Positions 1 through 64,000 of a stretch of DNA of 64,000 nucleotides are shown piece by piece. Origin of the DNA: Bacillales bacterium (GTDB lineage: Bacteria; Bacillota_I; Bacilli_A; RF39; UBA660); assembly GCA_016282375.1 (NCBI GenBank), contig JAEEKI010000012.1, positions 6,254 through 70,253 of the forward strand, given 5' to 3'. Numbering within the stretch: the stretch's first letter is position 1; the number at the start of each line of letters is the position of its first letter. Both the position numbers and the translations under genes were made by a program. A model generated the notes under the pieces. That model saw only the letters and a list, made by a program, of their open reading frames with translations. It was not told where the DNA came from and searched no databases.

Positions 1-171
1 TCCACCTAGGGTAACAAAGACCATATTATTTCTTTCTGTTACGGTATTGGCATTAGCTACATTAGTTATATTCATATTACCTGTTGAAAAGTATGCATAT
101 GTTGCTCCTATAATTAAGACTAAAAAAGTCAGTATGGTAACAATCATTAAAACAATGTTATTCTTTTTCAT
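1..171 (-). CDS. N-terminal 57 codons of a paralog-family secreted/surface protein (gene runs off the left edge)
   Basis: ATG at 169-171 (minus strand), 5 nt after AGGAG. My translation is MKKNNIVLMIVTILTFLVLIIGATYAYFSTGNMNITNVANANTV..., open to position 1. Same N-terminal design as 11658-13889 and 47361-50987. Confidence 0.7.
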   Translation of the reverse strand, partial: MKKNNIVLMIVTILTFLVLIIGATYAYFSTGNMNITNVANANTVTERNNMVFVTLGG

Positions 172-199
172 ATGAACTCCTACTATGATAAGTATAGCA

Positions 200-967
200 T
201 TACAGTTTATAATAGTCAAAGTAATGATTAAGTAAATACTCTTTATCACTCATTACTTTGCTATTTATAAAATAATAGTATTTTACATCTTTATGGTAAT
301 TATTAATATTTTCATTTTTACTGATTACCCTATTAAAGAATAAATCATCATATAAACATCTTTCTAAAAGAAATTTATGATACATTATTTTTCTATTTTT
401 TATTACTTCGATAGTCTTATATAAGAATAATCCCAATAATAAATAATTGTTGATTAAATAATGATAATTTAGTATTAAAAAGATGACCATAAAGAAAAAA
501 GATACTAAGTAATATACTTTTAAACTATTTTTAAATGATAAAAATAAACAACTAATTTCCATTAGTATTTTACTTCCATCTAAGGGAATAATGGGTAAAA
601 GATTAAAGAACATTATTTGGTAGTTTATTTGCATTAAGAAAGAATCTACTTTTAATAAAGATAAAATAAAAGATAATATTAATTGAAAAACAATTCCAAA
701 ACTAGCTATTAATAGATCATTAAAAATTGGTGTATTCAGATGTTTATTAATCTTAGTTAATCCTCCGAAAGGAAATATTTCAACACTTATTACTTCATAA
801 CCTAATATTAAAGTAATAAAGATATGGCCTAGTTCATGAAAAAGAACAATAAAAAAAGAATATAAAGCATATTTGATAAAACCACATAAACAAGCTATTA
901 ATAAAAAATATAAAGTAAGATAATTAAATTTGATTTTGATATTCTTCATATGAATAATATTTTTCAT
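200..967 (-). CDS. Site-2 protease family zinc metallopeptidase (peptidase M50, SpoIVFB-like)
   Basis: Polytopic membrane ORF with HExxH (FHELGHIF) and NLLPIIPLDG motifs. It follows mreC-mreD-M23-like genes, as spoIVFB does in Bacillus. The true start may be the Met at 949. Confidence 0.8.
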   Translation of the reverse strand: MKNIIHMKNIKIKFNYLTLYFLLIACLCGFIKYALYSFFIVLFHELGHIFITLILGYEVISVEIFPFGGLTKINKHLNTPIFNDLLIASFGIVFQLILSFILSLLKVDSFLMQINYQIMFFNLLPIIPLDGSKILMEISCLFLSFKNSLKVYYLVSFFFMVIFLILNYHYLINNYLLLGLFLYKTIEVIKNRKIMYHKFLLERCLYDDLFFNRVISKNENINNYHKDVKYYYFINSKVMSDKEYLLNHYFDYYKL

Positions 968-1484
968 CTTTAGAAATTAACATATATAGTTTATTATTAA
1001 CTTCCCCTAGAATAGTGTCTAACTCAACATAATCATACATTTGCACACTTATATTTTCTAAAGAAGCATACCAAATATCAAAGCCATTACTACCCTGAAT
1101 TATAATAACATTCTCAAATTCCTCCTTGGGACCAATATATATTACTATCCCTGGTGTTATGGCCCTAACAGGATAATTACTAGATACATGAAAAAGTGTT
1201 CCCTCTTTATATGATTCATAACTAGTTAAATCATTATTTTGAGAAACTAAAACTGCATCATTATTAATAACGGATATTTTTTTATAAAAAGAATTAAACT
1301 TAGCAAAATTAAAATGATTCTCAAATACATATTTTTTAAAAGTATTTAAATTCTTATCACTTAATGATGTATAAATTAAACTACTCAAAACAATAATAAT
1401 CATTATTAAATACTTAGTAATATACTTTGAAAGATTGTGTTTAGGTTTATCATTTAAATAACTATCCAATAGTTTATTATGCAT
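924..1484 (-). CDS. Membrane-anchored LytM/M23-like domain protein (SpoIVFA-like position)
   Basis: N-terminal TM helix. The C-terminal segment PGIVIYIG...VIIIQGSNGFDIWYASL...VELDTILGEV looks like a degenerate M23 fold. The ORF overlaps the start of the M50 gene. Confidence 0.45.
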   Translation of the reverse strand: MHNKLLDSYLNDKPKHNLSKYITKYLIMIIIVLSSLIYTSLSDKNLNTFKKYVFENHFNFAKFNSFYKKISVINNDAVLVSQNNDLTSYESYKEGTLFHVSSNYPVRAITPGIVIYIGPKEEFENVIIIQGSNGFDIWYASLENISVQMYDYVELDTILGEVNNKLYMLISKDEKYYSYEEYQNQI

Positions 1485-1488
1485 TATT

Positions 1489-1803
1489 TCACCATTTAAG
1501 TATATGATGATGATTTAAAATAATGAATACTATCTGATATAAGAATGATATCAAATATATAGTTTTCAAAAATAAAAGACTAAAGACTATAAAAATAAGA
1601 ATATTACTCAAATAATAATTCTTGATTAATTTATAAAGAAAAAAACTAATTATTAAAAAGAGTGTCATAAAACCATAAGTATAAGATACTAAATAATCAA
1701 TTATTAAACCATAAAGAATAATTAAATAAAGATTCTTACTATTTAAAACATTAAGAAAAAAGACTGTTTTTTTAAAAGATAATAAATCAATTATAATTGT
1801 CAT
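1489..1803 (-). CDS. Small polytopic membrane protein, MreD-like
   Basis: 104 aa, all hydrophobic helices. LYGLIIDYLVSYTYGF resembles the MreD core motif. It overlaps the end of mreC. It is shorter than typical MreD. Confidence 0.45.
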   Translation of the reverse strand: MTIIIDLLSFKKTVFFLNVLNSKNLYLIILYGLIIDYLVSYTYGFMTLFLIISFFLYKLIKNYYLSNILIFIVFSLLFLKTIYLISFLYQIVFIILNHHHILKW

Positions 1804-2407
1804 ACTCTTTTTCCTTTACAACTACTACATCCATAGTAAGCACTTCATTATTAACTAGTTCAATTTCTAAAGTATTAGCTATTTCATTTGGATCTTTTTG
1901 GATTTTTTTAACAAAGCCAATTAAGAAATTATCACCGATATAGCCTAGATTCGAAGTATATACCTTATCATTTATATTTATTATACAATGAGCATCGACA
2001 TTAGTAACTAAAACTTTTTGATCATACTTTAAAAGACCATAGCAATTATTAATCTGAACCTGTAACAAAATATCGGGATTAGTAAGCAATTTAACAATAG
2101 CCATATTTTGATATTTATTTTTTATAATTCCTAATAAACCTTTTTCGTTAATAACATAATTATTGATATTTATTTTAGTATCATCAATAGCAATTATTAA
2201 TTCTTCATTAAATTTATAAGGATTTTGATAAAGAATTTTACCATAAACATAATTTTCTTTATAAATAACATTACTTTGAATACTGTTATTTATTACATTA
2301 ATGTATATATCTTTAGAATTATTAATTAACTTTAAAAAATATGGTTTAGTTATAACCAATAAAAAAAGAATTAATAAATAATAACTTTTAGATACTAATA
2401 TACGCAT
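1787..2407 (-). CDS. mreC: Rod shape-determining protein MreC (short form)
   Basis: N-terminal anchor, then GLLGIIKN...AIVKLLTNP...VYTSNLGYIGDNFLIGFVKKI, matching the MreC beta-domain pattern (GLvGrV...V.Ll.d...TSG..g.fP.Gl.IG.V). Confidence 0.7.
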   Translation of the reverse strand: MRILVSKSYYLLILFLLVITKPYFLKLINNSKDIYINVINNSIQSNVIYKENYVYGKILYQNPYKFNEELIIAIDDTKININNYVINEKGLLGIIKNKYQNMAIVKLLTNPDILLQVQINNCYGLLKYDQKVLVTNVDAHCIININDKVYTSNLGYIGDNFLIGFVKKIQKDPNEIANTLEIELVNNEVLTMDVVVVKEKEYDNYN

Positions 2408-2440
2408 ATTAATAGGATATCCAATTATTATCTTTTAATT

Positions 2441-7745: not shown

Positions 7746-8969
7746 TTATGTCAATATATACGGATCATTAACAGTTCCCGTACCGGAAACCACAGCCGTC
7801 TTAATAATAGTAATAACTGGCCGAATGGCTCTTAAATTATCACCAGTATCCTTGTCAAGAACTTTACCATTAGCGCTCACAGCAAAAGGTGTATAATCCT
7901 TTTCAGTTAACTTAGCACCCGTCAATAAATAATATTCAATTGTGATATCTTCATTGTATAAATAAAAACTCTTGTTTTCATCTTCGGTAGTCGCTCCAGC
8001 ATAAATAACCTCATCTACCGTTAACATAGCAATCTTACTTTGAACTTTATCGCCTAAACATATAAAAGATGGAATATGATCAACTTTTATTCTTGTTTCA
8101 GATAATAAACCTTCATCACCTTGAGTATTATCATTACAATACTTTTGATTAGCTACATAAAATTCAGATTTTTTAACATTCTTAACAAACCAATCATTAT
8201 TCAAATAAGTATATAAGTTGGAATTCTTAAACTTATAATTATCAATAGAATCATAATACTTCTTGATGGTTTCTGTTACCCCATCCAAGACTAATTTAAC
8301 AGAACCATCACCGTTAATCTTAACTATTTTATAATTAACGTCATCGATTACCACATTATTATTTTGGACATTACCTCGAAAATAATATGCTGATCCATAA
8401 TCATCAATTGTTCTAATTAAGCCTTCATCTTCGGTAGCTATTTCCTTACCCGGTTCTGTTAAAGGTGCAGTCTTAATTTCATTATGTGAAAGAATCGTAT
8501 CCGCAAAATTAGTTACTTCACTATTCTCTTCACTCACACTTATTTCAATACTATAGGTAATCTTATCTTCAGCATTAAACGACAAAGTATAATTATGAAT
8601 ACCTTCGCCTTCGATTTCAATATAACTAGAAATAGTTGAACTATACGGAGTTAAATAATCCGTTATAGTTACATCATCTCCATTAGTAAGTGTATATTTA
8701 ATATTACCTTTAATATTCTTCGGATTTAAAAAAGCTATATAATAATAAACTGTTTCTTCGGAAGAATTAATAACAGAAAAAGTAACTGTTTTATCTTTAT
8801 ATATTTTTAGTTTATCACCATTTTCATAGTTAATTGATAAAACCCCAGATGTTTTGATCATAGCCACATCTTTAATTTTTTTATATGAAAAATAGGAAAC
8901 TCCTAAAACTAATGAACCAATTATTAAAAAAAGTAATATAATTAGTATTCTTTTAAACTTCTTTTGCAT
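7746..8969 (-). CDS. Paralog-family secreted protein (divergent N module plus short M module)
   Basis: Start moved to ATG 8969 (GGAGA 8 nt upstream), because the track start at 9017 overlaps the pnp terminator. N-terminus MQKKFKRILIILLFLIIGSLVLGVSYFSY. C-terminal motifs IAMLTVDEV, RAIRPVITI and GTGTVNDPYILT are shared with the family. Confidence 0.7.
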   Translation of the reverse strand: MQKKFKRILIILLFLIIGSLVLGVSYFSYKKIKDVAMIKTSGVLSINYENGDKLKIYKDKTVTFSVINSSEETVYYYIAFLNPKNIKGNIKYTLTNGDDVTITDYLTPYSSTISSYIEIEGEGIHNYTLSFNAEDKITYSIEISVSEENSEVTNFADTILSHNEIKTAPLTEPGKEIATEDEGLIRTIDDYGSAYYFRGNVQNNNVVIDDVNYKIVKINGDGSVKLVLDGVTETIKKYYDSIDNYKFKNSNLYTYLNNDWFVKNVKKSEFYVANQKYCNDNTQGDEGLLSETRIKVDHIPSFICLGDKVQSKIAMLTVDEVIYAGATTEDENKSFYLYNEDITIEYYLLTGAKLTEKDYTPFAVSANGKVLDKDTGDNLRAIRPVITIIKTAVVSGTGTVNDPYILT

Positions 8970-11657: not shown

Positions 11658-13889
11658 TTAAATTTCAAAATCGTTAATACAATATGCTGTCCCATTGTAA
11701 TTAACCGTAGCATATGATCCACTCCGATTAGTAAAAACAATACCAGTATTATAAATGCCATACCAACTATAATTATTAATATTACATTTAATAGTACCTG
11801 AACTAGTAGTACAATCGCTTAGACTTATATTAAAACCAGCGTTAATTAATGTTTGGTAAAGAGCTTGTTTAGCGCTTGTTTGTTGTGCAGATGTAAAATT
11901 GGAATTTAACGTATGTCCCGTTAAACCATATTGCGTATATGGTTGACTTAAACACAACTCATTGCCACTATCTTCATCCTTCATACATGCAAAGTATTCA
12001 CTATCATTTTGCCCTATGCAACTAGTAGTACTCATAGAAGAATATGTTGTATTTGCATGGCTTGGATATTCATAAATTTCATCAGAAAAAAAGTCAGCCC
12101 AATAGAAATCCGGTGTTTTTATTGTATAAGGATCATTCCAAGATCCAGCATGATTACCACTAATTAAAGTATCAGCTTTTAAATACACTACTGGACGTAT
12201 AGAATCTGAAGATGATACAGTAAGGTTCGATAAACCACCTGAAGAATCCACTGCAAGTACTACATTATTAATACTACTAGAAGTTAAGGTACGATACCCT
12301 CCACCAGAGGAACCTGGTGGATTAGAAGTTATACCAGTATACCATAAATAATCATTACCAACACAATCAGACTTATAGGCACCACTTCCCCATCCTGAAG
12401 ATGTCATGGCGGTACCTAAACAGGTGGTTCTAGAATAAGTACTGCCACCACTCGTAGCATAACCATAATCACTTGGATATATTAAACCGACTTTGCCATA
12501 CCAGTAAGCTGCTCGATTCTCAAGCATATTTGATGCAGTGTATAAAAATCCAGTTCCACCAATATTACGTTCTTTATTGTAAAAGGCTTGAGGATTTCCT
12601 TCAGCATCCGTTGACCATGAATTTACTCCATATAAATCCCATTTTGCTGTTACTATTTTTGAAAGAGCTGATAAAGATATTTTTTTAGGTACAGTACCAG
12701 CTGTTGCTGTATAACTGCTGGTAGTTGCAGTGCTTGGTTTATAAACGGTAGTACCATTTCCATCTAAATAACTATACGTATCATTATAAAAATTATGTCC
12801 ATTTCCATCTGCAACCACATTATTAGTTACTGTATAATTTGTATGTAATTGAGTTCCATATTTGTCATATGAAGTTTTTAAATAGTTAGACCCATTTAAC
12901 ATTAACATTAGCTGACTATCGCTCCAATCACCAGAACCACTAGAAGACAGTGATGTACCAACAGTACTTGATTTCTTATCATAAATAAAACTTCCCAAAG
13001 AATCGTTTCGAACTATTTTTACTAAGCTCCCTTTTGAAGTTGTAGCACATTCATCTTCACTACCATAGGTTCCTGTACAATATTCCATATCAGGCATCAC
13101 ACCAATTATACGCCATAATTCACCATTAAACGATATATAATTATTAGGGTTTTTACCAGCATAACGCAATTCGCCTTCGTGATCCTCTGTTAAAAACCAT
13201 TGACTACCTGATACTGCATCATACCCTGCCCTTGGAGCATCATATGCTAAATAATCAGCAATTGATTTGACGCTAGATGATGAACTACAATGAGCATTTG
13301 CTACCATAATAAATCCCCGATAATTCTTATCAGAATGAGATGTTTGACTAACATCGGTTAAATTATAAAATTTTGTAGTTAAAGTATCTTGTCTAGTTTC
13401 GGTGGAATTTGCACTAGCTTGGATGCTTGCTTTTCCAAGTACTCTTTTTCCATCCACATAATTAGGTACTTGCATTTCACTAATTGCTCCCGATACAGTT
13501 AATTCCTTCGAAGCATCAGTAGAAATTACATATTGATTTGGAGACGTTGTATCCCAAACCCAAACATAATCATATGTACAATAGGCATCCGTACCTGAAG
13601 TATTTTGAAAACTGATATCAAACATAACATCATAGCTATCAGCAACAGAATCATTTGACCCTTGAACCATATTTGCAGCCGTAATATTAAGAGTAACACC
13701 ATTAACTGACGCACTATTTATTGCGGCAGTGAAATTATAATTGCCACTATTAAAAGTTGTATTATAGGATATATTACCATTCGTAGTATTTACTCCGCCT
13801 GTAAAAAAGGCATAAGATATTCCCATTATGACACAAGCCGCTATAGCAATACCAATAATAAATAATATCACTATCCTTTTTTTATTCAT
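11658..13889 (-). CDS. Paralog-family secreted protein, full N+M+C module architecture
   Basis: 743 aa. N-terminus MNKKRIVILFIIGIAIAACVIMGISYAFFTGG. KFYNL...NYRGFIMVANAHC. GELWRIIGVMPD. YWYGKVGLIYPSDYGYA. IRPVVYLKAD. GSWNDPYTIK. Then the Cys-rich C module (CLSQPYTQYGLTGHT...). Confidence 0.8.
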   Translation of the reverse strand: MNKKRIVILFIIGIAIAACVIMGISYAFFTGGVNTTNGNISYNTTFNSGNYNFTAAINSASVNGVTLNITAANMVQGSNDSVADSYDVMFDISFQNTSGTDAYCTYDYVWVWDTTSPNQYVISTDASKELTVSGAISEMQVPNYVDGKRVLGKASIQASANSTETRQDTLTTKFYNLTDVSQTSHSDKNYRGFIMVANAHCSSSSSVKSIADYLAYDAPRAGYDAVSGSQWFLTEDHEGELRYAGKNPNNYISFNGELWRIIGVMPDMEYCTGTYGSEDECATTSKGSLVKIVRNDSLGSFIYDKKSSTVGTSLSSSGSGDWSDSQLMLMLNGSNYLKTSYDKYGTQLHTNYTVTNNVVADGNGHNFYNDTYSYLDGNGTTVYKPSTATTSSYTATAGTVPKKISLSALSKIVTAKWDLYGVNSWSTDAEGNPQAFYNKERNIGGTGFLYTASNMLENRAAYWYGKVGLIYPSDYGYATSGGSTYSRTTCLGTAMTSSGWGSGAYKSDCVGNDYLWYTGITSNPPGSSGGGYRTLTSSSINNVVLAVDSSGGLSNLTVSSSDSIRPVVYLKADTLISGNHAGSWNDPYTIKTPDFYWADFFSDEIYEYPSHANTTYSSMSTTSCIGQNDSEYFACMKDEDSGNELCLSQPYTQYGLTGHTLNSNFTSAQQTSAKQALYQTLINAGFNISLSDCTTSSGTIKCNINNYSWYGIYNTGIVFTNRSGSYATVNYNGTAYCINDFEI

Positions 13890-21714: not shown

Positions 21715-21734
21715 AAAGTTAGGGGGTTTTGAAA

Positions 21735-38220: not shown

Positions 38221-38241
38221 TATATTTATCTCCTTCCATTA

Positions 38242-38529: not shown

Positions 38530-38542
38530 TCTTTCACCTCCC

Positions 38543-38797: not shown

Positions 38798-38806
38798 AAT
38801 TCACAC

Positions 38807-41800
38807 CTATAACATTTCTTCTTCCGAATCATAACTTTCGACATATTTGAATAATGTTGGAATACCAGAAACAATGTTATAGCCAAAGTTATTTGGAATA
38901 TTATTAGGTAAAGATCGCGTACTAGCAAATAACTTGAATATACTTTGTTCTGCTAGACCATTACCAATCCAAATACCCCTTGTACTATTTACAATATCCT
39001 TATACCATCCATCATACTCTAGTTTCTTTAAGTTGTCAAACGTATCGACAATCACATAACTTATCTTTGATAACTTTTTCGAGTTCATTAAAGTACTGCC
39101 TACAAGGCTATCAAATTCAATACCAAGAATTGTTTTAATCTTGTTAATACCGGTAATAACCACTACCATATTGCCATAATTCTTTAAGGCATCATTATCA
39201 TACCCATTCTTAACGTAAATATCATTTAAACCATCAACAGTAGTTTTAAAACTAGCAAATACCTTATCAAAAGAACTAGTATACAATTTAGCATTTCCTG
39301 ATACATCACTTACTAATTTTTCGGCATCTATAACACAAACGACAGTATTTTTGATTGTTGACATTTCGTGCACGAACACGTTTACAAATTTTTGTAAACT
39401 ATTGATTTTAGTTGCAGATATCACAATAGAAGTTTGATTCTTTACATCTACTGAAAGAATATTTAAATTCTCTTTAGCAACACCAATTGGTACTTGATGA
39501 AGGCCCATAAATTCTGAAGATACAAACGAAGTAGTAACTTTATCTGGTAAAGTAGGAATTCTTTCTGCTTTCTTAGTATAAAGAGTATTTAAATTAGTAA
39601 TTGTTTTAGCAATAAAATCCGGTATTTCTGCTGTCTCTGTTGGATAGGCAGTTTGAAATTCATAAATACCCTCTCTTTTAGCAAGACCTCGACCAAATAT
39701 CTTACTTGGCAACACTTCACTTCTTCCCAATAATTGACGATAATCAAATTCATCGTTCATTTGTAAAACTAATTTTTCATTAAAGTTTTGAGCAACTTTC
39801 ATTCGAATATTACTTGCTGCACTAACAGTTGTTACAAACAATAATCCGTATTTTACACCTTCTCTTGTTAAGAGAATAATATCATCGGCAAAATCAGGAT
39901 ACAATTCATTAAATGATTCATAACCATTTATAATAGTAATAATAGTTGGTAACGTTTTACCACTGTTCTTACAATAATAATCATAACTTCCATTATAATC
40001 AGCAAATAGTTTTTTTCTATCAGCCATTTTCTTTTGCAGTAAACGGAATAATGTCATAAGTTGATCTTTGTCATCAGCTCCGACAATCCCACCAACATGT
40101 GGTGCTTTAGAATACATTCTCAAAGCTTCTGTACCAAAATCTAAAATATATATATTTATTTCATCTACACTATATGTAGTTATTAATGAATAAACAAGCG
40201 TAGACATTAAGTTTTCTTTTCCACTACCAATTGAACCATAAACTAATAAGTTTCCACTTTGAGATAGCGGTAAAGTTAATAGATTTTGTCTTTGTTCTTT
40301 TGGAGCATCATATTCACCTATAACAGGATTTATAACAAAAGGTACTTTGTTATAACGATATTTCTTTTTTAATACATCCACAAAGATATTAGCAGGAATT
40401 GGATCAAGCCATAATTGACGAACATCAATTTGTTCTTCATATCCCAAATCAGCTAGATAATTTAGAATACTCGTTACTTCTTCGCCTTTATGTACTCCTC
40501 TTAAATTTTGTTTATCATTATCAATACTTTTGATGCGTTCACCAATATTATCAACGAAATTAATAGAATTATCCACAATCTTCTTTCGCTTTTCAGATTC
40601 ATAATAAGGAGCTCCACACCAAGCAGATTGACCCTTAGCAAAGAACTCATTAAAGCCAACTTGAAGATAAAAACGACCAGTTTCTTTTAAGTAAGCGGCA
40701 TCCGGTGATTTAATCATATCATTACTATCTGACTTATCTTGAACTTTTAAACATACTCTAAATTTTGAGTTAGACCAAATCTGTTCATCAACAACACCAC
40801 TTGGTTTTTGAGTAGCTAAAATTAGATGGACACCTAATGAACGACCAATACGAGCCGTAGATATCAACTCATCCATAAACTCTGGTTGTTGAGCTTTTAA
40901 TTCTGCAAATTCATCAGATATAATAAACAAATGAGCAATTGGTTCTTTTACTTTACCCTCACGATATAATTTTTGATATTTATAAATATCAATCGTGCTT
41001 TCATTACAGGCATCACGAGCTTCATTAAATATTCTTTGCCGTCTTTTCAATTCACTTTGTAATGATGATAAACTCCGATTAATTTCATTTACATCAAGAT
41101 TGGTTATGGTACCTGCCAAATGTGGAAGTTTAACACCTGTTTCTTTGTTTTCAAAAGCTCCAGCTAAGCCACCACCTTTGTAGTCAATAAGTACAAATTG
41201 GACTTCATAAGGATTATAATTAACAGCCATTGACAATATATAAGTAATGATAAATTCAGATTTACCTGAACCAGTCATACCTGCGATAAGGCCATGGGGA
41301 CCATGCACCTTTTCATGTAAATCTATTTTAAATAATTCACCATTTTCATTAATACCTACCGGACAAGAAAGCGAAGTTGTCGGATCATTTTTTTGCCACC
41401 TGTTGTAAGCATTTAATTGCTCAACATTTCCTGCATTGTACATCTCTAAGAAGGTATATAAAGTTGGAAGTTCAAAAGCTTTATCGCGGGTTTCAATTGG
41501 TATATTAGAAGTAGCATATACATACCTATCAATGGTTTTGTTAATAAAGTCAGGAATAAATTCTTGCTTTTTATTAACTAATTCATTTTCGAAAATACCA
41601 CCAACCGAAGCATCAATACTAATGAATGTTGAACATTCACTTGGTAAAGAATTTAATTTATCAGTTAAATATAAAATGGTAAAACCATTAGATCGACCAG
41701 ATTTTAAGATATCATTAATTATACCTAATCTATTTGTTATATATACATCATCAGTAATAATGACATAATGTGGAAAAAATCTCGTCTTTTTTTCCGAATC

Positions 41801-44852: not shown

Positions 44853-46598
44853 TTACTTTAATACTGCTTTAATACGTCTAACACCTGATGATGAACTTTC
44901 TTCCTTTATAATCTTAAATGTCCCTAAAACGGAAGTGTTTGCCACATGAGGGCCACCACATAATTCTTTTGAAATATCCCCTATACTATAAACAGTAACT
45001 ACATCAGGATACTTTTCAATAAACATACACTCTGCCCCGGATTTAATAGCTTCTTCCTTAGGCATTTGCTCGCACTTGACATCCAAGCCTTCCTTAATCC
45101 AATTATTAACAATTGTCTCCGCTTGATTTAACTCTTCATCACTTAGCTTATGATCACATGAAAAGTCAAAACGCATTCTTTCATCAGTAATATTTGAACC
45201 TTTTTGATGAACTTCAGGGCCAACAACTATTTTTAAGGCAGCATTTAATAAGTGTGTGGCCGTATGATATTTAGTCTCGACTTCTGAATTGCCTGCTAAT
45301 CCACCTTTAAACTTACCTGCTGAGGCAGTTCGAGATTTTTCTTGATGTTCTTTAAACATTTTTTCATAGCCTTCTTCATCAACAGACAAATTATTTTCAC
45401 TAGCTAATTCTTTAGTAAGTTCTAATGGAAAACCATAAGTATCAAATAAATGGAAGGCAACTTCACCAGTAATATTCTCCCCATTTTTAGTAAATTCACT
45501 AAATTTTCTCAATCCTTTTTCAAGGGTTCTTGTAAATTTAACTTTCTCAATAGCTAATTCTTTTAAAACAACTTCAGCATTATCTTTAAGTTCAACATAA
45601 TACTTATCATATTGATTAAGAATTATTTGAGCGATTTCACACTCCCATGAACTATTACTATCAATACCTAAAATTCTTGCATGCCTTATAGCCCGACGAA
45701 TAAGTCTCCTTAGAATATAACCTTGATCTGTATTACTTGGTTTAATACCAGCTGGATCTGCTAAAATAAAAACTGCTGTCCGAATATGGTCTGCAATGAT
45801 TCGCATACTTTTTTGATATTCACCAACATATTCTTTTTTAGAAAGTTCACATATCTTAGCAATAACATTTTGCCAAATAGAAGATTCATAATTATCTAAT
45901 TTACCTTCCAAAACCGAAGTAATTCTTTCTACTCCCATTCCTGTATCAACATTCTTCTTTGGAAGTTCAACAAATGTTCCATCACTTTTCTTTTCATATT
46001 GCATAAAGACATCATTCCAAATTTCTACCCAACGATTATCATCAGGATCAAATTCATCAGGAATAGCATCTTCACTACGAAAATAGAACATCTCACTATC
46101 TGGTCCACAAGGTCCAGTATCTCCGGCTATCCAAAAATTATCATCAACAGTCTTGGCGATTCTTTGGGGATTAATACCTAAAGAAATCCATTTATTATAT
46201 GATACTTCATCAAATGGAATATTATCATTACCTGCAAAAACAGTTACAGCTAGTCTTTCAACAGGAATGTTTAATTCTTGCGTTAAGAATTCAAAACTCC
46301 AAGATATAGCTTCTTCTTTAAAATAATCACCTAAAGACCAATTACCAAGCATTTCAAAAAAAGTATGATGAGTTTTATCACCAACTGAATCCAAATCAGT
46401 AAGTCTAATACATTTTTGATAATCACACAATCTTGTTCCATATGGATGCTTTTGACCCATTAAATATGGAATTAAAGGCATCATACCAGCTGTATTAAAT
46501 AAAACACTAGGATCGTTTTCAGGTACAACAGGTGCACTTGGAATTTGTTTGTGTCCCTTTTTAGTAAAAAAATTAATGTATAAGTCTTTTATGTTCAT
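44853..46598 (-). CDS. alaS: Alanyl-tRNA synthetase, short form (catalytic, tRNA-recognition and editing domains; no C-Ala domain)
   Basis: LFNTAGMMP, DTGMGVERI, RRLIRRA, editing-site HTATHLLN and CGGPHV. The ORF ends at 581 aa, right after the editing domain. Confidence 0.88.
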   Translation of the reverse strand: MNIKDLYINFFTKKGHKQIPSAPVVPENDPSVLFNTAGMMPLIPYLMGQKHPYGTRLCDYQKCIRLTDLDSVGDKTHHTFFEMLGNWSLGDYFKEEAISWSFEFLTQELNIPVERLAVTVFAGNDNIPFDEVSYNKWISLGINPQRIAKTVDDNFWIAGDTGPCGPDSEMFYFRSEDAIPDEFDPDDNRWVEIWNDVFMQYEKKSDGTFVELPKKNVDTGMGVERITSVLEGKLDNYESSIWQNVIAKICELSKKEYVGEYQKSMRIIADHIRTAVFILADPAGIKPSNTDQGYILRRLIRRAIRHARILGIDSNSSWECEIAQIILNQYDKYYVELKDNAEVVLKELAIEKVKFTRTLEKGLRKFSEFTKNGENITGEVAFHLFDTYGFPLELTKELASENNLSVDEEGYEKMFKEHQEKSRTASAGKFKGGLAGNSEVETKYHTATHLLNAALKIVVGPEVHQKGSNITDERMRFDFSCDHKLSDEELNQAETIVNNWIKEGLDVKCEQMPKEEAIKSGAECMFIEKYPDVVTVYSIGDISKELCGGPHVANTSVLGTFKIIKEESSSSGVRRIKAVLK

Positions 46599-47360: not shown

Positions 47361-49160
47361 TTATAATAATCTATATGGATTATTATATGATCCGTCGCCA
47401 TCGATAACAACTGTATCAGCATTTAAATATAATGCTGGTCGTGTATTATATGAAGAATATGCATAACCAGAAGTTACAAAGCCACTAGAAGACACTTGCG
47501 TGATATACTCCGTACGACTAGAATAATTAGTTAAAGTCACACCATTTATTGCAGTTCCTTTAGAACTAGCAGTCGCATTCTTATAAGTAAGATAACTCAT
47601 AAGTCCACAATAAGTTCGATAGTTACCTGATGCATTCAAATTGGCTGAAAGGCAACTAGAACGCGGATATGTTGTTCCATCATTTGAACCACCGCCAGAA
47701 TAGCCATAATCACTTGGATACATAAGGCCCACTTTACCATACCAATATGTTGGTCTAATTAATGAATTAGTACCTTGTGTACATGCCGTGTTACTTGTAA
47801 TAGTCGCACATGTATAATTACTTTTCTCTCTTTGATATATTGTTTCAACCGTGTTTGCTATTGAAGATATACCACCTAAATTCCATTTTACCGTAGCAAC
47901 CATTCCTTGGGCCGAAAGACTAAATGGTTTAAAGCAATCGTTTACTGTGGAACCAGAACACTTTGTAAAAGCGGTTGTCGAATTAAAACCGTTTGTTAAA
48001 TTAGCACTAGCCGGTTTATACACTGTATATGTGCCTGTATTCCATAAACTCGCCGGATTACGATAAAAATTTACACCATTTGCATCTTGAACATACCCAT
48101 TTCGAATAACACTTATTTGAGGTACAGTGCCACTGACAGTATAACTAGATGTATAAAAAGTAGATGGATTAGTCATCAGCATCAACTGACTATCACTCCA
48201 TACATTAGAACCACTTGTATTACCAGAAGAACCAATATTTTTGGCTTTTCCATCAATAATATAAGTTGACCCATAAGTTGTACTTCTAATAATTTTAACC
48301 AGGTTCCCATTTGTTTCTGGTACTCCATCACCATTCGTATCATAATCTACTGGCATAACGCCAATTATTCGCCACATTTCACCGTTAAATTCAACAAAGT
48401 TTGGTGGATTAGCTCCCGCATATCGATAATCCGTTTTACTATCAGATGAATGAGTAACCGTAGTTAAAAGCCAATTATTTCCTTGAGCATCAGTCCCTGC
48501 ATTAGTACTAGCATTTGCCGTATTACTAATTATTTTATTAGCTAGTGTCGTTGTACCGGTTGGATAACAATGAGCATCATCAATGGCTATTTGTCCACGA
48601 TATGTCTTATCCGCATGATAATCTTGGTTAACATCTAAATTATAAAATTTTGTCCCGATATTCCAAGTTTGTGTTGTCGTCGTAGCATTGGCACTAATAG
48701 TATATCGTCCTAATACCATTGAATTTTCAATTGAATATGGAACATTTATTTCTCCTAAACTTAGTCCACTACCTGTCGACCCATAAACAACAAATTCATT
48801 TTGATCAGTAAAACTTTTTTCATAAGTATCAGAACCACTCAACCAATTCCAAATAATCGAATATGAGCAAGTAACATTTATGTCTGATTGCAAACGAACA
48901 ACTATATTTTTGGATTCATCGGCAGCTACACTATTTTCACCACCTATTAGCATATTTCCACCATTAATATTTAAGGTCATATTCGTATTTCCTGTAACCG
49001 TAAAATTAGCTACGGTTCCATTAGCAAAAGTTACATTGACATTTAAATTATTAACTATATTTTGATTCGCAGCTAAATAAGCATATGAAAAAGATAATAC
49101 AACAAGCATTATAACTATCATAACAATTGAAATATAAATCACTAACTTTTTATCTTTCAT
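47361..49160 (-). CDS. Paralog-family secreted protein (N+M modules), tandem copy 1
   Basis: 599 aa. MKDKKLVIYISIVMIVIMLVVLSFSYAYLAANQN, KFYNL...TYRGQIAIDDAHC, GEMWRIIGVMPVD, YWYGKVGLMYPSDYGYS, TRPALYLNAD, GDGSYNNPYRLL. Confidence 0.8.
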   Translation of the reverse strand: MKDKKLVIYISIVMIVIMLVVLSFSYAYLAANQNIVNNLNVNVTFANGTVANFTVTGNTNMTLNINGGNMLIGGENSVAADESKNIVVRLQSDINVTCSYSIIWNWLSGSDTYEKSFTDQNEFVVYGSTGSGLSLGEINVPYSIENSMVLGRYTISANATTTTQTWNIGTKFYNLDVNQDYHADKTYRGQIAIDDAHCYPTGTTTLANKIISNTANASTNAGTDAQGNNWLLTTVTHSSDSKTDYRYAGANPPNFVEFNGEMWRIIGVMPVDYDTNGDGVPETNGNLVKIIRSTTYGSTYIIDGKAKNIGSSGNTSGSNVWSDSQLMLMTNPSTFYTSSYTVSGTVPQISVIRNGYVQDANGVNFYRNPASLWNTGTYTVYKPASANLTNGFNSTTAFTKCSGSTVNDCFKPFSLSAQGMVATVKWNLGGISSIANTVETIYQREKSNYTCATITSNTACTQGTNSLIRPTYWYGKVGLMYPSDYGYSGGGSNDGTTYPRSSCLSANLNASGNYRTYCGLMSYLTYKNATASSKGTAINGVTLTNYSSRTEYITQVSSSGFVTSGYAYSSYNTRPALYLNADTVVIDGDGSYNNPYRLL

Positions 49161-49210
49161 ACAGTTAAATTATACAATAAAAAAAAAGAAGCGGCAATAT
49201 GCTTCTTTTC
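48300..49210 (-). repeat. Copy A of a ~0.9-kb direct duplication (5' part of the paralog gene plus promoter/hairpin)
   Basis: Near-identical to 50120-51038, with scattered, mostly synonymous differences. Identity decays 3' of about codon 290. Confidence 0.85.
49169..49206 (-). promoter_or_regulatory. Terminator hairpin with an embedded promoter; no SD before the ATG
   Basis: Minus strand AGAAGC-ATATTGCC-GCTTCT plus a T-run. TTGCCG (49192-49197), 17 nt, TATAAT (49169-49174), then only 8 nt (TTAACTGT) to ATG 49160. Confidence 0.45.
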
Positions 49211-49226
49211 AAATAATTTAATTATT

Positions 49227-50987
49227 TTACATTATTTTATATGGATTATTATAAGAACCATCACCATCAATATAAACGGTGTTAGGGTCCAAGTATAAAA
49301 CAGGACGATTAGTATACCCTCCACGAGCCGTACCATCGGTTAAATTACCATTGGAATGTGACATAGCAGCATAAAAAACATGGGATAATTTAGGTGTCAA
49401 GGTTATCGTACTATTAGCTGTTCCCTGTGAAGAATTAGTAGCATCATTGTATCGCAAAAAGGTTTTTTGTGCACAATAAGTAAGAGGATTTCCACTACTC
49501 CACGTACTCATGTTTGAACTCATACAAGATGATTTTGGATAAGTACTATCATTAGAACCATAAGCCGATAAGCCAATATCGCTTGGATACATAAGGGCAA
49601 CCTTTCCATACCAATATGCCGATCTGTTAGTCGTCGTATTAATAGTTCTTTCTAGTGCATAGAATGCCTCAGCAGATGTTGCGGATGTAGAATAACCACC
49701 TAAAAGCCATTTAACGGTTGCTACCATACCTTGAGCAGAAAGATCTAATGATCGAAAACACCCCGTTGCTGTACTACTCGAGCATCTAGTCATTGTCGTA
49801 GTTGATGTAAAACCTGAAGTTTTAGTTGCACTTGCTGGTTTATAAACCGTATATGTCGAACTAGTATTCCAGAAAGCAGATGGATTTCGATAATAAGAAA
49901 CACCATTACTATCATATACATAAGATCCACGAACATAACTCATCCATGGATGAGTTCCACTCGAAGTATATCCACTATTTAAAAACGCTAAAGGATTAAA
50001 TAGTACCATCATTTGGCTATCAGACCACTCATTAGAACCATACGTTGCATTAGTGGATGACCCTAGGCCAGTCAACTTATAGTCTCTTGGAACTGAAGTT
50101 CCTGCCGTGTTACGAATTATTTTAACTAAATTAGCATTTGTTTCTGGCACTCCATCACCATTCGTATCATAATCTACGGGCATAACACCAATTATTCGCC
50201 ACATCTCACCATTAAATTCAACAAAGTTTGGTGGATTAGCTCCCGCATATCGATAATCCGTTCTACTATCAGAAGTATGTGTCGTGGCAAATAAAGACCA
50301 ACTATTACCTTGAGCATCAGTCCCTGCATTAGTACTAGCATTTGCCGTATTACTAATTATTTTATTAGCTAGTGTCGTTGTACCGGTTGGATAACAATGA
50401 GCATCATCAATGGCTATTTGGCCACGATATGTCTTATCCGCATGATAATCTTGATTAACATCTAAATTATAAAATTTTGTCCCGATATTCCAAGTTTGTG
50501 TTGTCGTCGTAGCATTGGCACTGATTGTATATCGTCCTAATACCATCGAGTTTTCAATCGAATATGGAACATTTATTTCTCCTAAACTTAGGCCACTACC
50601 TGTCGACCCATAAACAACAAATTCATTTTGATCAGTAAAACTTTTTTCATAAGTATCAGAACCACTCAACCAATTCCAAATAATCGAATATGAACAAGTA
50701 ACATTTATGTCTGATTGCAAACGTACAACAATATTTTTGGATTCATCGGCAGCTACACTATTTTCACCACCTATTAGCATATTTCCACCATTAATATTTA
50801 AGGTCATATTCGTATTTCCTGTAACCGTAAAATTAGCTACGGTCCCATTAGCAAAAGTTACATTGACATTTAAATTATTAACGATATTTTGGTTCGCAGA
50901 TAAATAAGCATATGAAAAAGATAATACAACAAGCATTATAACTATCAAAACAATAGAAATATATATTACTATTTTTTTATCCTTCAT
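49227..50987 (-). CDS. Paralog-family secreted protein (N+M modules), tandem copy 2
   Basis: 586 aa. The first ~225 aa are almost identical to copy 1. The C-terminal half is homologous but diverged (AYWYGKVALMYPSDIGLS, NRPVLYLDPN, GDGSYNNPYKIM). Confidence 0.8.
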   Translation of the reverse strand: MKDKKIVIYISIVLIVIMLVVLSFSYAYLSANQNIVNNLNVNVTFANGTVANFTVTGNTNMTLNINGGNMLIGGENSVAADESKNIVVRLQSDINVTCSYSIIWNWLSGSDTYEKSFTDQNEFVVYGSTGSGLSLGEINVPYSIENSMVLGRYTISANATTTTQTWNIGTKFYNLDVNQDYHADKTYRGQIAIDDAHCYPTGTTTLANKIISNTANASTNAGTDAQGNSWSLFATTHTSDSRTDYRYAGANPPNFVEFNGEMWRIIGVMPVDYDTNGDGVPETNANLVKIIRNTAGTSVPRDYKLTGLGSSTNATYGSNEWSDSQMMVLFNPLAFLNSGYTSSGTHPWMSYVRGSYVYDSNGVSYYRNPSAFWNTSSTYTVYKPASATKTSGFTSTTTMTRCSSSTATGCFRSLDLSAQGMVATVKWLLGGYSTSATSAEAFYALERTINTTTNRSAYWYGKVALMYPSDIGLSAYGSNDSTYPKSSCMSSNMSTWSSGNPLTYCAQKTFLRYNDATNSSQGTANSTITLTPKLSHVFYAAMSHSNGNLTDGTARGGYTNRPVLYLDPNTVYIDGDGSYNNPYKIM

Positions 50988-51038
50988 ATAATTATATTAT
51001 ACAATAAAAAAAAAGAAGCAGCAATACGCTTCTTTTTT
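50120..51038 (-). repeat. Copy B of the ~0.9-kb direct duplication
   Basis: See copy A. It includes the same hairpin (AGAAGC...GCTTCT) and the TTGCTG-17-TATAAT element 8 nt from ATG 50987. Confidence 0.85.
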
Positions 51039-54564: not shown

Positions 54565-55662
54565 TTATGGAATAAGACAATATGCTTTGTCAGAACTATT
54601 AACTTCACATACTTGTAAAGCATTATTACTATTTAGACAATAAACAATGCCTTGAGAATTAACGCCACAACCGATACCACTAATATAACAATAAACAGCG
54701 CTTGCCTCTGCAGTACAGTCACTAATACTTATAATAGCTCCAGAATCAACAAAAGCTTGATAAATTGCTTGTTTAGCACTTGCCTGTTGAGCGGCTGTAA
54801 AATTAGAACCAGGTGTGTGACCTGAAAGGCCGTATTGCGTATACGGTTGTGACAAACATGTTTCATGTCCTTGTAATGTTGTTGCACACGCGTAATATTG
54901 AAAATCTTGACCAATATATATACTACGACCGCTTGATGTACCTTCAGGCAATAAAGAATCCCCATACGCTGGGTAAGTGCACGGATTTGATGGTGTACAC
55001 GTAGAAGTATCAAACCAATATTCCTTAGCGCCTGAACATTGAACATTCTTTATTGATACTTTTCCGCTTGGGTGTTGACCAGCCGCATCATTTTGATTGA
55101 CATTTAAATTATAAAATCCAAATTGAAATTTCCAATCTATAACCGCAGATGGTGATGACGAAGTAGTTCTTATATATGTGGAATACAAAACAATCTCATT
55201 AGAACCAGCAATTGACATATTAATAATTTCATTAACAGTTCCGTTTTCATGTAAAGATTGACCAGCTCTTATAACTAGTTCTTTTAAATTACCTGCTACC
55301 GATGCAGCACTTGGTACATATGCCACCGTAGGTGTATAAACAATATCATAACTGCAATACAATCCATGAGGAAATTGGTTTACATCAGTATTCAATGCAA
55401 TAGTAATATTACTTACAGGTCCTAATACAACAGTACTATTATTAACAACATTATCCACAGATAAGTCACTTTCAGTTATATTTAAAGACAGATTAACACC
55501 TTCTGAGTAACTTAATGTAGCATTACCAAGGATAGTGACATTTGTATTGGTATTACCAGTCACAGTTGGTCTACTTCCATAAGCAAAAGTTACAGCAAAA
55601 ATAGCGGTTAAAACAGCCATAACAACGATACTTAAAATAATATATATTTGTTTCTTATCCAT
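54565..55662 (-). CDS. Paralog-family secreted protein (N+C modules, no M module)
   Basis: 365 aa. MDKKQIYIILSIVVMAVLTAIFAVTFAYGS. FGFYNLNVNQ...SGKVSIKNVQC. The C module CLSQPYTQYGLSGHTPGSNFTAAQQASAKQAIYQAFVDSG..ISISDC is nearly the same as in 11658-13889. Confidence 0.75.
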   Translation of the reverse strand: MDKKQIYIILSIVVMAVLTAIFAVTFAYGSRPTVTGNTNTNVTILGNATLSYSEGVNLSLNITESDLSVDNVVNNSTVVLGPVSNITIALNTDVNQFPHGLYCSYDIVYTPTVAYVPSAASVAGNLKELVIRAGQSLHENGTVNEIINMSIAGSNEIVLYSTYIRTTSSSPSAVIDWKFQFGFYNLNVNQNDAAGQHPSGKVSIKNVQCSGAKEYWFDTSTCTPSNPCTYPAYGDSLLPEGTSSGRSIYIGQDFQYYACATTLQGHETCLSQPYTQYGLSGHTPGSNFTAAQQASAKQAIYQAFVDSGAIISISDCTAEASAVYCYISGIGCGVNSQGIVYCLNSNNALQVCEVNSSDKAYCLIP

Positions 55663-55691
55663 GACATACCCTCTACTAAAATGATTATAAC

Positions 55692-55727
55692 AAAAAAGTG
55701 TATAAATAACAAATATATTTATACACT
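55692..55727 (-). terminator. Intrinsic terminator after ligA
   Basis: Minus strand GTGTATAAATA-TATTTG-TTATTTATACAC plus TTTTTT. Confidence 0.75.
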
Positions 55728-62599: not shown

Positions 62600-62624
62600 A
62601 AAAAAAGCCTTGTTTCCAAGGCAT
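62600..62624 (-). terminator. Hairpin terminator after the CotY/Z-like gene
   Basis: Minus strand GCCTTG-GAAA-CAAGGC plus TTTTTTT. Confidence 0.7.
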
Positions 62625-62628
62625 CTAT

Positions 62629-63072
62629 TTAACAAACACAGTCAACATAACAGTCATTTAAACAGCGAATGCAACATAAGCAATCACAGTTCATTGTAAA
62701 TAGTGAATTTGTAGCTATATATGGATTTAAAGATGTTTCATCTGGATTGTCAGCTAGCACTCTAAATGTACAACAATTACCTTCGAGCTTCTCTACTCTA
62801 AAGACAGTAGAACAGTTATCACCGATAGCTTGTCCTGAACAATTAGTAGTTACATTTTTGGTTGTTGGCATACTCCAAGGAATACCGTTTGAGGAACAAG
62901 TATATAACATGACGGGTCTAGTGTTACAAACAAGGCAATTAGATCCTCCCCCTAACATTGGTCGATCACAAGAATCTAAAGAACTATCACAACACGCATT
63001 TTCTTGAAGAACAAAAATTACGGATAAGATTTCATTAATACAATTACCTGATCCATTTGTATTATTATTCAT
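62629..63072 (-). CDS. CotY/CotZ-family cysteine-rich spore coat/crust protein
   Basis: 147 aa with about 19 Cys. CINEILSVIFVLQ...C, NTRPVMLYT and FRVEKLEGNCCTFRVL match the CotZ/CotY pattern. Cys-dense C-terminus. Confidence 0.75.
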   Translation of the reverse strand: MNNNTNGSGNCINEILSVIFVLQENACCDSSLDSCDRPMLGGGSNCLVCNTRPVMLYTCSSNGIPWSMPTTKNVTTNCSGQAIGDNCSTVFRVEKLEGNCCTFRVLADNPDETSLNPYIATNSLFTMNCDCLCCIRCLNDCYVDCVC

Positions 63073-63164
63073 TTATTTCACCCTTTCTTTTGCTTTCATT
63101 ATAATTTATGAGAGATAAAATAAATCGTGCTATAATTTTTATGATTTTTATAGTATAATTATTT

Positions 63165-63494
63165 ATGGGTGATAAAATGAGCACAATAGTTACGTATTTA
63201 ATAATTGCATTTATTTTAATGATTATTGCTTTAGTAGTTTTAAAATTAAATAAGAAAGATTTTAACATCGAAGCCAATAAGTTAATAACATATCTTGGTG
63301 GTAAGGATAATATTATCAATGCCGAAGCTAACATGAGTCGATTTAAAGTTATTCTTAAAGATGTCTCTTTAGTAGATAAAGATGGTATTCAAAAACTAGG
63401 TGCTAAAGGAATTGTTGAAATTGATAACCAGTTAAAAATAATCTTTGGCAAAGATGCAAGAACATTAAAAAAGTATATTAGTCAAATTGTCTAA
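63165..63494 (+). CDS. Membrane-tethered PTS-EIIB-like domain protein lacking the phospho-Cys
   Basis: N-terminal TM helix. LGGKDNIINAEANMSRFKVILKD aligns to the EIIB motif GGkeNI...hCaTRLR..vkD, with Asn at the Cys position. Confidence 0.5.
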   Translation: MGDKMSTIVTYLIIAFILMIIALVVLKLNKKDFNIEANKLITYLGGKDNIINAEANMSRFKVILKDVSLVDKDGIQKLGAKGIVEIDNQLKIIFGKDARTLKKYISQIV

Positions 63495-63520
63495 TATACT
63501 TTTTTATTATAATTTATATA

Positions 63521-64000
63521 CTAATAATTCCAATCGCAGTTTGCCGTTCCATAAGGGGATAAAGCACAATAAAAATCTCTAACCCAATCTTGGCATTGAA
63601 TAAATCCCCTAAAAGAGACATTGCATGCTGTATTTTCATTTAGTAAACACATAGGAGCCTGTTCACTAGGATAGCAATCATTAATATCAATATCTACACC
63701 CGCATCGATAAACACTTGATAAAGGGCATATACTGCACTTTCTTGCTCTGCTTGAGTAAAATAGCACTGATAATCAAAACAACTTGTATGATTTTCAAGA
63801 CCATATTGATTATATGGTTGTGTTAAACATACTTCATGGCCTTCGCCATCATTAGCACATACATAGTATTTGTCTATGCCTTGGCCAACATATGCATTGC
63901 CATCTAAACTAAAGCCCGTTTCACTTAAGGTTCCCCCATAGTTTGGAAATTCATAATACGTCCCATCTGTAGTAACCCAATAGGCAGTTGGGCCTGGTTT
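63521..64000 (-). CDS. C-terminal 160 codons of a paralog-family protein carrying the Cys-rich C module (gene runs off the right edge)
   Basis: I translated 63716-64000 by hand. The frame stays open to the window end: ...YYVCANDGEGHEVCLTQPYNQYGLENHT...FTQAEQESAVYALYQVFIDAGVDIDINDC... The track ORF 63521-63715 is only its tail. Confidence 0.75.
   Translation of the reverse strand, partial: KPGPTAYWVTTDGTYYEFPNYGGTLSETGFSLDGNAYVGQGIDKYYVCANDGEGHEVCLTQPYNQYGLENHTSCFDYQCYFTQAEQESAVYALYQVFIDAGVDIDINDCYPSEQAPMCLLNENTACNVSFRGFIQCQDWVRDFYCALSPYGTANCDWNY

Follow-up and report, generated by a model that had tools for sequence, protein, structure and literature searches.

A 64-kb stretch of DNA from an uncultured Bacillales bacterium (contig JAEEKI010000012.1, positions 6,254 to 70,253; hereafter the window, meaning the whole stretch that was analysed) raises the question of what a set of paralogous genes for apparently exported proteins does among genes for housekeeping and sporulation. 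An earlier note on this DNA had described seven such genes, assembled from modules N, M and C, as a diversifying surface repertoire with SipW-type export signals that is wedged between core operons. The reading that we consider moderately probable is that these genes encode a diversifying repertoire of exported lectin-like binding proteins, from which the signal is probably removed after a small residue. The window has about 30% GC and carries most of its genes on the minus strand, among them genes for an M50 peptidase, an M23 peptidase, MreC, RecD2, PNPase, CotJB/JC, ThyX, SHMT and FolD, as well as RuvAB, LysS, AlaS, LigA, PcrA and CotZ. The DNA comes from a host of a rumen/gut lineage, a spore-forming, low-GC bacterium of the Bacilli that is uncultured. 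Its nearest species representative, the sheep-rumen metagenome-assembled genome (MAG) 'Bacilli bacterium RGIG7022', encodes housekeeping proteins that share 75-94% identity with those of the window.

Translation of the window recovers all seven open reading frames (ORFs) that had been reported, at the same coordinates (Table 1) and on the minus strand. Hidden Markov models (HMMs) of the three modules, built from homologues and run on the six-frame translation, match N at 11658-13889, 47361-49160, 49227-50987 and 54565-55662 (E 1e-43 to 1e-55), M only at the first three of these loci (E 1e-109 to 1e-174), and C at 11658-13889, 54565-55662 and 63521-64000 (E 1e-51 to 1e-58). Taken together with pairwise BLAST, these searches give six true members of the family, which occupy 7.5 kb or 11.8% of the window, and one distant cousin at 7746-8969. 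The fragment at 1-171 encodes 57 residues and is too short for the N HMM; we count it as a genuine member because it is 50-74% identical over its whole length to the N-termini of the N-module proteins P0131, P0141, P0070 and P0090. The proposal of a modular, paralogous family is therefore well founded on BLAST and the module HMMs, and the architectures N+M+C, N+M (twice), N+C and ?+C had been read correctly. Six of the seven proposed members stand, including the fragment at 1-171, and the gene at 7746-8969 proves to be a separate conserved protein. The motifs quoted for the family, GE[LM]WRIIGV, WSDSQ, YWYGKV.L.YPSD, RP..YL and G.G....PY, are present and conserved. Alignments of N, M and C each contain paired invariant cysteines, a hallmark of extracytoplasmic proteins. 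The AlphaFold2 (AF2) model of the 743-residue protein (pLDDT 88.9) consists of a helix at residues 3-31, a disordered segment at 31-41, a long-stranded beta-sandwich for N at 44-203, a large mixed domain for M at 207-591 and a smaller domain for C at 595-743. All 838 homologues of this protein are named 'hypothetical', and homologues of the family as a whole are 'hypothetical proteins' in MAGs of uncultured Bacilli, Tenericutes and Firmicutes from the rumen and from rabbit, human and chicken gut. A literature search found no paper on the family, and searches that combined Erysipelotrichia, RF39 or Tenericutes with SipW returned nothing relevant to it.

Comparison with RGIG7022 reveals how these genes change. 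Gene order is kept across nearly the whole window, and along this shared order neighbouring genes are 75-94% identical, whereas the family genes reach only 38-60%. At locus 11658-13889 the window gene is 52% identical to its RGIG7022 counterpart, with CotJC at 92% and PNPase at 93%, and it has the architecture N+M+C against N+M in RGIG7022. At locus 47361-50987 the window has a tandem pair, each gene N+M, where RGIG7022 has a single N+M gene; the two copies are 60% and 53% identical to it and the neighbours are 75-88% identical. At locus 54565-55662 the window gene, N+C, has no orthologue (its best N match elsewhere is 39% identical), the gene found there in RGIG7022 has a transmembrane (TM) segment and M only, and LigA is 85% identical. 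The loci thus stay fixed, and the modules at them are acquired, lost or exchanged. Between the two tandem copies, residues 31-227, which comprise most of N and the linker into M, are identical at the amino acid level despite about 20 synonymous differences, and the later part of M differs at about half of its positions. This pattern implies that the head has diverged freely, while N has been under strong purifying selection or the 5' half of the gene has undergone conversion. About 19 family genes are present in the approximately 220 kb of RGIG7022 that was sampled (20 ORFs match the HMMs, and one of these repeats another at a locus end), with N+M in nine, M behind another N-terminus in four, N alone in three (one a truncated copy), N+M+C in two, and N+M+M and C alone in one each. 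The tandem pair, the synteny and the RGIG7022 gene set all bear out the idea of a diversifying repertoire. The position between core operons, on which the earlier note had remarked, is overstated: the arrangement is old, is syntenic with RGIG7022 and shows no sign of recent insertion. Each family gene in the window has its own terminator hairpin and -10 element, extended in some of them. With respect to phase variation, neither simple-sequence tracts nor invertible elements, nor inverted repeats beyond ordinary terminator hairpins, were found at the window loci and their promoters.

What the variable part of these proteins may do is suggested by the predicted fold of module M. A Foldseek search of the model of the 743-residue protein against the PDB gave a single meaningful match, the IgA peptidase of Thomasclavelia ramosa (9qa6; prob 1.0 over 361 columns), and the best named matches among viral models were three phage 'DUF6273 domain-containing' proteins (prob 0.97-1.0). 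The N-terminal domain of 9qa6 is DUF6273 (PMC12402451), a domain that has been called C-type-lectin-like and that forms the receptor-binding head of phage 'tentaclins', where it is diversified by diversity-generating retroelements (DGRs) (PMC10743442). The Foldseek output carries no aligned coordinates, and we infer that these matches belong to M because the targets are named DUF6273 and PF19789 is precomputed for the close homologue P0024. At the level of the modelled fold, M is thus an enlarged DUF6273-type domain, in line with the resemblance that the earlier note had suspected. It has 385 residues against the 172 positions of the Pfam model, about twice as many, and the three M-bearing window proteins give no match to PF19789 at its gathering threshold (23.5 bits). 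Module C is recognized in alignments by the motif YIGQD..YYAC....E.CLSQPYTQYGL.GH; it has a narrow distribution and no annotation, and in some proteins it follows the signal immediately, with N and M both absent. As far as sequence searches can tell, C and N are both previously unannotated domains.

The alignment of module N contains the motif FYNL..DQ..GK.Y.G..V.N..C and two invariant cysteines, one of which terminates the domain, in agreement with the features given in the earlier note. No Pfam or NCBIfam model matched N in the window proteins or their homologues, and searches of PDB sequences with the whole-family, N and C-containing profiles gave nothing at E<=10. When the N profile was run with HMMER against all 1.84 billion representatives, it found at least 582 clusters (50% identity), in which the domain always starts at about residue 28. 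Among the new best matches, 67 of 139 are stand-alone proteins of about 195-235 residues that end at the last cysteine; in the remaining proteins N is followed by DUF6273, DUF285/PARCEL, BspA-type leucine-rich repeats (LRR_5), a PT-HINT pretoxin module or other domains. Modelled alone, N reaches a pLDDT of 86.6, and both in this model and in that of the 743-residue protein disorder is predicted for the first 10 or so mature residues and confidence drops in the two strands that follow. The searches do not support a TasA-like jellyroll for N, a possibility that had been raised earlier. Peptidase_M73 (PF12389) is matched at E<=1e-3 by none of 125 N-module proteins and by none of the N-containing window proteins, and the fragment at 1-171 scores 13.8 bits over its signal region, below the cutoff of 22.5. 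Foldseek with the N-only model returns only weak, generic Ig-like matches (TM 0.2-0.44), namely arrestins, Bd1399 and the chaperone-usher pilins FimG and CfaB, and neither TasA (5of1, 8aur) nor the CalY and Abp structures are among the 50 best. Distant M-bearing relatives carry N-terminal domains of another type, here called T-type; one of them (P0106) scores 25.2 bits on Peptidase_M73, above the cutoff, and the T-type profile finds TasA (8aur/5of1) in the PDB at E ~2e-3 and also archaeal AbpX. When N is aligned with the T-type profile by hhalign, the probability is 7-13%, and the C-terminal strands look alike (FYNL..DQ..GK.Y.G..V against FLN.DENQ..MGKSFS..I). A TasA-like fold for N is therefore rejected at the available sensitivity, and the earlier impression that the mature regions do not look TasA-like is confirmed. 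By these sequence and model comparisons N is not detectably TasA-like, though a homology to TasA is conceivable. A separate observation concerns a cluster of five consecutive genes in RGIG7022 (L009:8848-13936), which have the same signal type throughout and encode a 373-residue protein, stand-alone N proteins of 232 and 225 residues, an N+M protein of 600 residues and a 208-residue N-like protein; the cluster looks like a possible shaft-plus-adhesin operon.

In the N-terminal signal, a motif x-[YFW]-[AS]-x-x near residue 26 is found in 220 of 234 homologues (about 94%), where it follows about two basic residues and a hydrophobic run with a median length of 22. Position -3 is S, T or A in 72%, position -2 is Y or F in about 99%, and position -1 is A in 74% and S in 26%; position +1 is Y or F in 65% and position +2 is F or Y in 57%. 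The signal therefore has a basic tip, a helix of about 22 residues and the sequence [STA]-[YF]-[AS] followed, across the putative cut, by [YF]-[FY], and this form is nearly universal, even before unrelated modules. The motif can be read directly in five window proteins. Related motifs, T-S-H-A-Y-F (SHAYF, P0058) and S-R-A-T-F-Y (SRATFY, P0076), stand before M-bearing proteins that lack N, and the form [STA]-[YF]-A-[YF]-F stands directly ahead of module C in the C-only proteins P0270 and P0274. Since the motif precedes unrelated modules, it belongs to the export signal rather than to N or to any one domain. In its sequence the signal is shaped like that of TasA and camelysin. The mature form of TasA begins with residue 28, and the stretch immediately past the SipW site (residues 28-38) is the donor strand of the fibre, anchored by F29 and I32 (PMC9674648). 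Other classes of export or anchoring signal were considered and rejected. The C-termini of the proteins read ...NPYRLL, ...NPYKIM, ...CINDFEI, ...AYCLIP and ...CDWNY, with no LPXTG, hydrophobic or basic tail of a sortase substrate. An I-A-A-C sequence inside the helix of the 743-residue protein recalls a lipoprotein, but its cysteine is kept in no paralogue. A type IV pilin-like class III signal would need a site of the type G then F-T-L-I-E, and none stands ahead of the helix.

No gene for an S26 signal peptidase was found in the window by regular-expression and phmmer searches of six-frame ORFs of at least 80 residues and by Pfam scans of 44 of the remaining long ORFs; ORFs of 110 residues, 130 residues and the like that are nested in or overlap longer ORFs were covered by the motif and phmmer searches only. 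The statement that the window has no SipW gene is thus correct. RGIG7022 has two archaeal-type (SipW-class) signal peptidases, which score 94 and 73 bits on TIGR02228 (cutoff 51.85). The higher-scoring gene (L014:13933-14577) immediately follows a gene that matches the TasA-like T-type HMM weakly (E 6e-4), and it lies 2.8 kb from a family gene. In an Erysipelotrichaceae MAG, a sipW-like gene (L044:13625-14299) is flanked by a gene that was read by eye as TasA-like and lies 3 kb from an M-bearing gene. The lower-scoring RGIG7022 peptidase (L013:20220-20699) directly follows a radical-SAM/SPASM-like gene (the two span L013:19115-20699), and it may for this reason serve a different system, perhaps one of peptide maturation, rather than the family.

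On the reading that we favour, the basic tip and the helix of about 22 residues would carry each protein through Sec, and the signal would be cut after the small residue of [STA]-[YF]-[AS], most probably by an archaeal-type (SipW-class) signal peptidase, as it is for TasA. Module N would be a disulfide-stapled beta-sandwich that serves as a constant stalk or assembly module, M a variable ligand-binding head with the DUF6273 or C-type-lectin fold, and C a second, Cys-rich terminal domain. The genes are separate transcription units at fixed chromosomal sites and evolve several times faster than their neighbours through duplication, divergence of M and C, and module swapping. Each strain would thereby come to have its own repertoire of adhesins or matrix proteins that bind glycans or cell surfaces in the gut. 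Several points weigh against this account. The best window score on TIGR04088, 15.2 bits for the fragment at 1-171, is below the curated cutoff of 19, and even at E<=0.05 the model is matched by no more than 2 of 72 and 6 of 125 homologues. An [ST]-x-A site, with small residues at -3 and -1, suits any type I signal peptidase, and a helix of 22 residues could just as well serve as a signal anchor that is never cleaved. The SipW-type signal proposed in the earlier note is thus supported by the form of the motif across the homologues and is not supported by the TIGR04088 cutoff or by a site that also fits an ordinary type I peptidase. SipW-class genes lie within 10 kb of family loci at 3 of 79 loci, where about 2 are expected, which is no clear excess; we therefore use the presence of such genes as evidence and not their proximity. 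The family proteins have no cell-wall anchor, neither LPXTG nor wall-binding repeats, that would hold a cleaved protein on the cell. As for the proposed head, to our knowledge a ligand has been identified for none of the DUF6273 domains. In the IgA protease of T. ramosa, the N-terminal DUF6273 domain had no measurable role (PMC12402451).

Among the alternatives that have to be weighed, it is conceivable, and in our judgement rather unlikely, that the proteins build lectin-decorated fibres, in which, once the signal is cut, each N would lend its free N-terminal strand ([YF]-[FY]-x-x-N-x-N...) to the sandwich of the next by donor-strand exchange, as in TasA, the stand-alone N proteins of about 200 residues forming the shaft and the N+M, N+C and N+M+C proteins the variable adhesive subunits. 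The share of stand-alone proteins among the new best N-profile matches agrees with such a model, as do the clustering of stand-alone N genes with N+M genes (L009:9956-13936), the apparently strong purifying selection on N in the tandem pair while M diverges, and the disordered N-terminal mature segment, which recalls the TasA donor strand at residues 28-38 (PMC9674648). The weak fold matches include donor-strand pilins as well, FimG, CfaB and the PapG pilin domain (TM 0.3-0.44), but these stay at the level of a generic Ig-sandwich. TasA, CalY and Abp fall outside the 50 best matches and N resembles the T-type profile at no more than the 7-13% already given, the window has no stand-alone N gene, and a TapA-like anchor was not identified. 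A stronger form of this model, which we regard as unlikely, is that N represents a new class of Gram-positive extracellular filament subunit, with SipW-class processing, N-terminal donor-strand polymerisation and a sandwich fold unlike that of TasA; it would then be a functional parallel to TasA and the archaeal bundling pili, again with stand-alone N as the shaft.

The signal may also never be cut. The helix would then be a type II membrane anchor with the aromatic motif at the membrane interface and N as a stalk for M and C, an arrangement that fits the long hydrophobic run (median 22 residues), the AF2 helix, which runs on through the motif, the lack of any other anchoring device and the unreached TIGR04088 cutoff. 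We think it improbable nevertheless: nothing about an interface belt demands that precisely positions -3 and -1 be small in front of unrelated modules, a motif of this type stands ahead of the cleavage site in TasA, which is mature from residue 28 (PMC9674648), and a stalk of about 180 residues is too short for a Gram-positive wall in a host that has MreC, an M23 peptidase and spore-coat genes. The resemblance of M to phage proteins suggests one more origin, as DGR targets or prophage-derived receptor-binding proteins, since the best viral fold matches are phage DUF6273 proteins and DUF6273 is the DGR-target domain in tentaclins of gut phages (PMC10743442). However, the window contains no template-repeat-like copy of any M segment outside the genes, and its scanned ORFs include no reverse transcriptase or phage gene, which makes a DGR or prophage origin unlikely. 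The loci are syntenic with housekeeping genes across species, and the differences between the tandem copies are spread over all of M and not confined to a short C-terminal variable region, so that we give this origin very little credence. The diversifying repertoire of exported binding proteins is therefore the reading that we retain.

By analogy, the family would work most like the TasA/CalY/SipW matrix systems and the DUF6273 surface or phage receptor-binding proteins, and by sequence it is not a demonstrable member of Peptidase_M73 or TIGR04088. With TasA/TapA/SipW of Bacillus subtilis and CalY (camelysin) of B. cereus it has in common a basic N-terminus, a long helix and [GST]-x-A followed by aromatic residues, as well as small, predicted-secreted beta-sandwich subunits of about 200 residues beside larger variants; genomes of its nearest relatives contain SipW-class peptidase genes, and distant relatives that share M score on Peptidase_M73 or match TasA weakly. 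It differs from them in that N matches Peptidase_M73 in none of 125 proteins and has TasA outside its best 50 fold matches, that no sipW or tapA stands beside the window genes, and that the family genes are scattered single units and not an operon. Unlike TasA, the family has lectin-like and Cys-rich fusions, and any fibres that it forms are conjectural. With DUF6273 proteins (PF19789; 9qa6, phage tentaclins), M shares the fold, the W..I.G and RP..YL motifs and an occurrence in surface proteins of gut Firmicutes; it differs from them in its roughly doubled length, in staying below the Pfam threshold in the window proteins, in not being linked to a protease, Ig-like repeats or a DGR, and in having the new module N as its N-terminal partner. 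As a further parallel, Clostridium perfringens has BsaA, a TasA-like matrix protein accompanied by a sipW gene (PMC11580942), which is a SipW-associated secreted matrix subunit of an anaerobic Firmicute. Module N could accommodate covalent cross-links at its invariant E, N and Q positions; no homology of BsaA to the family was detected. Large surface-protein families of small-genome Bacilli that live with hosts, such as the Mycoplasma DUF285/PARCEL and BspA-like LRR proteins, likewise have many paralogues per small genome, fast divergence and module shuffling, and DUF285/PARCEL/LRR_5 repeats are fused to some N-module proteins. In contrast to these families, the N-terminus here is not that of a lipoprotein, and the window loci have no phase-variation repeats or invertible elements.

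Table 1. Family genes, modules of the 743-residue protein, promoter-region elements and the related separate gene in the window (coordinates in the window; module folds and the signal are predicted).
Feature	Coordinates	Strand	Evidence or remark
Family gene, 5' part; signal (MKKNNIVLMIVTILTFLVLIIGATYA, then YF) and first ~30 residues of an N subtype	1..171	-	Continues past window edge
Separate gene, 407 aa; signal-anchor-like N-terminus, T-type (weakly TasA-like) beta domain, DUF6273-like domain	7746..8969	-	
Family gene, 743 aa; signal+N+M+C	11658..13889	-	HMMs; AF2 model
Signal/anchor of 743-aa protein, residues 1-27; ends I-S-Y-A, then F-F	13809..13889	-	Sequence, AF2, motif statistics
Module N of 743-aa protein, residues 28-206; all-beta sandwich, two invariant Cys	13272..13808	-	Alignment; model pLDDT 86.6
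Module M of 743-aa protein, residues 207-591; enlarged DUF6273-like / C-type-lectin-like fold	12117..13271	-	Foldseek
Module C of 743-aa protein, residues 592-743; Cys-rich domain	11661..12116	-	Alignment; HMM E 1e-50
Family gene, 599 aa; signal+N+M, downstream copy of tandem pair	47361..49160	-	BLAST, HMMs
Terminator-like hairpin between the tandem genes, then TGnTATAAT-type -10	49183..49210	-	
Family gene, 586 aa; signal+N+M, upstream copy of tandem pair	49227..50987	-	BLAST, HMMs
Terminator-like hairpin upstream of gene 49227-50987, then -10 element	51009..51038	-	Near-identical to 49183-49210
Family gene, 365 aa; signal+N (divergent subtype)+C	54565..55662	-	BLAST, HMMs
Promoter-like site with extended -10, upstream of gene 54565-55662	55684..55712	-	
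Family gene, 3' part; encodes module C	63521..64000	-	C HMM E 3e-56; continues past window edge

The gene at 7746-8969, which had been counted with the family, has no N or M HMM match at E<=10 and lacks the S-Y-A-Y motif, reading GVSYFSYKK at that place. It scores 21.9 bits on PF19789 (threshold 23.5), and PF19789 is precomputed for this protein. An orthologue of the same length is present in RGIG7022 (69.5% identity) and there are hundreds of orthologues of about 400-410 residues elsewhere, spread over a great many MAGs of gut and rumen Bacilli, contigs of 1.2 Mb among them; the gene adjoins pnp both in the window and in RGIG7022, and it looks like a core gene of the lineage. In a rabbit-gut Bacilli MAG, four tandem genes (L028:5170-11640) have an architecture of T-type domain plus an M-like part, which points to an expansion of the same kind built on another N-terminal module.

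Other loci of the window stand apart from the family. A type VIIb secretion locus (34091-43423, minus strand) encodes an EssC-like FtsK/SpoIIIE ATPase of 1538 residues (38807-43423), a WXG100-like protein of 101 residues (37915-38220; 20 bits, below cutoff), a DUF4176 protein (34091-34423) and two unannotated proteins of 513 and 607 residues that may be substrates. A divergent gene pair (31777-34016) consists of a plus-strand gene for a 531-residue protein with a C-terminal sortase domain (32421-34016) and a minus-strand gene for a secreted protein of 185 residues (31777-32334), which ends in VPETG, a hydrophobic stretch and KKKTK, is likely a sortase substrate and is unrelated to the family; this is the sole LPXTG-like sorting signal in the window. 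A plus-strand gene (21729-24533), preceded by one for an unannotated 507-residue protein, encodes 934 residues with an N-terminal TM helix and about 25 tandem repeats of 25 residues (75-nt period), each repeat reading C-P-x-G-Y-x-x-x-G-x-x-C-Y-K-x-T with two cysteines. A secreted protein of 383 residues (27423-28574, minus strand) has an ordinary Sec signal (…NVSA, cut before SD), a long Gly/Ser/Asn low-complexity tract and C-terminal TM helices, and gave no family match. The alanyl-tRNA synthetase ORF (44853-46598, minus strand) has only 581 residues, with the catalytic core and SAD domain present and the C-terminal region apparently missing, and its RGIG7022 orthologue has the same length.

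The lineage in which this family occurs comprises uncultured rumen and gut Bacilli, some with genomes of about 1.2 Mb, that are known only from metagenomes. With about 12% of the window, some 19 genes in about 220 kb of RGIG7022, fast evolution and a lectin-type head, the family is a prime candidate for the contact surface of these cells. It links a TasA-style export signal to lectin-like modules and adds the two unannotated domains N and C. If N polymerises, the family would constitute a new fibre system akin to that of TasA, and if N were a filament class of its own, its fusions to lectin, Cys-rich, LRR and toxin modules would be interchangeable subunits of a combinatorial, strain-specific adhesive fibre in gut and rumen Bacilli with small genomes. 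If N does not polymerise, the family would still provide a marker for strain typing and a source of glycan-binding modules.

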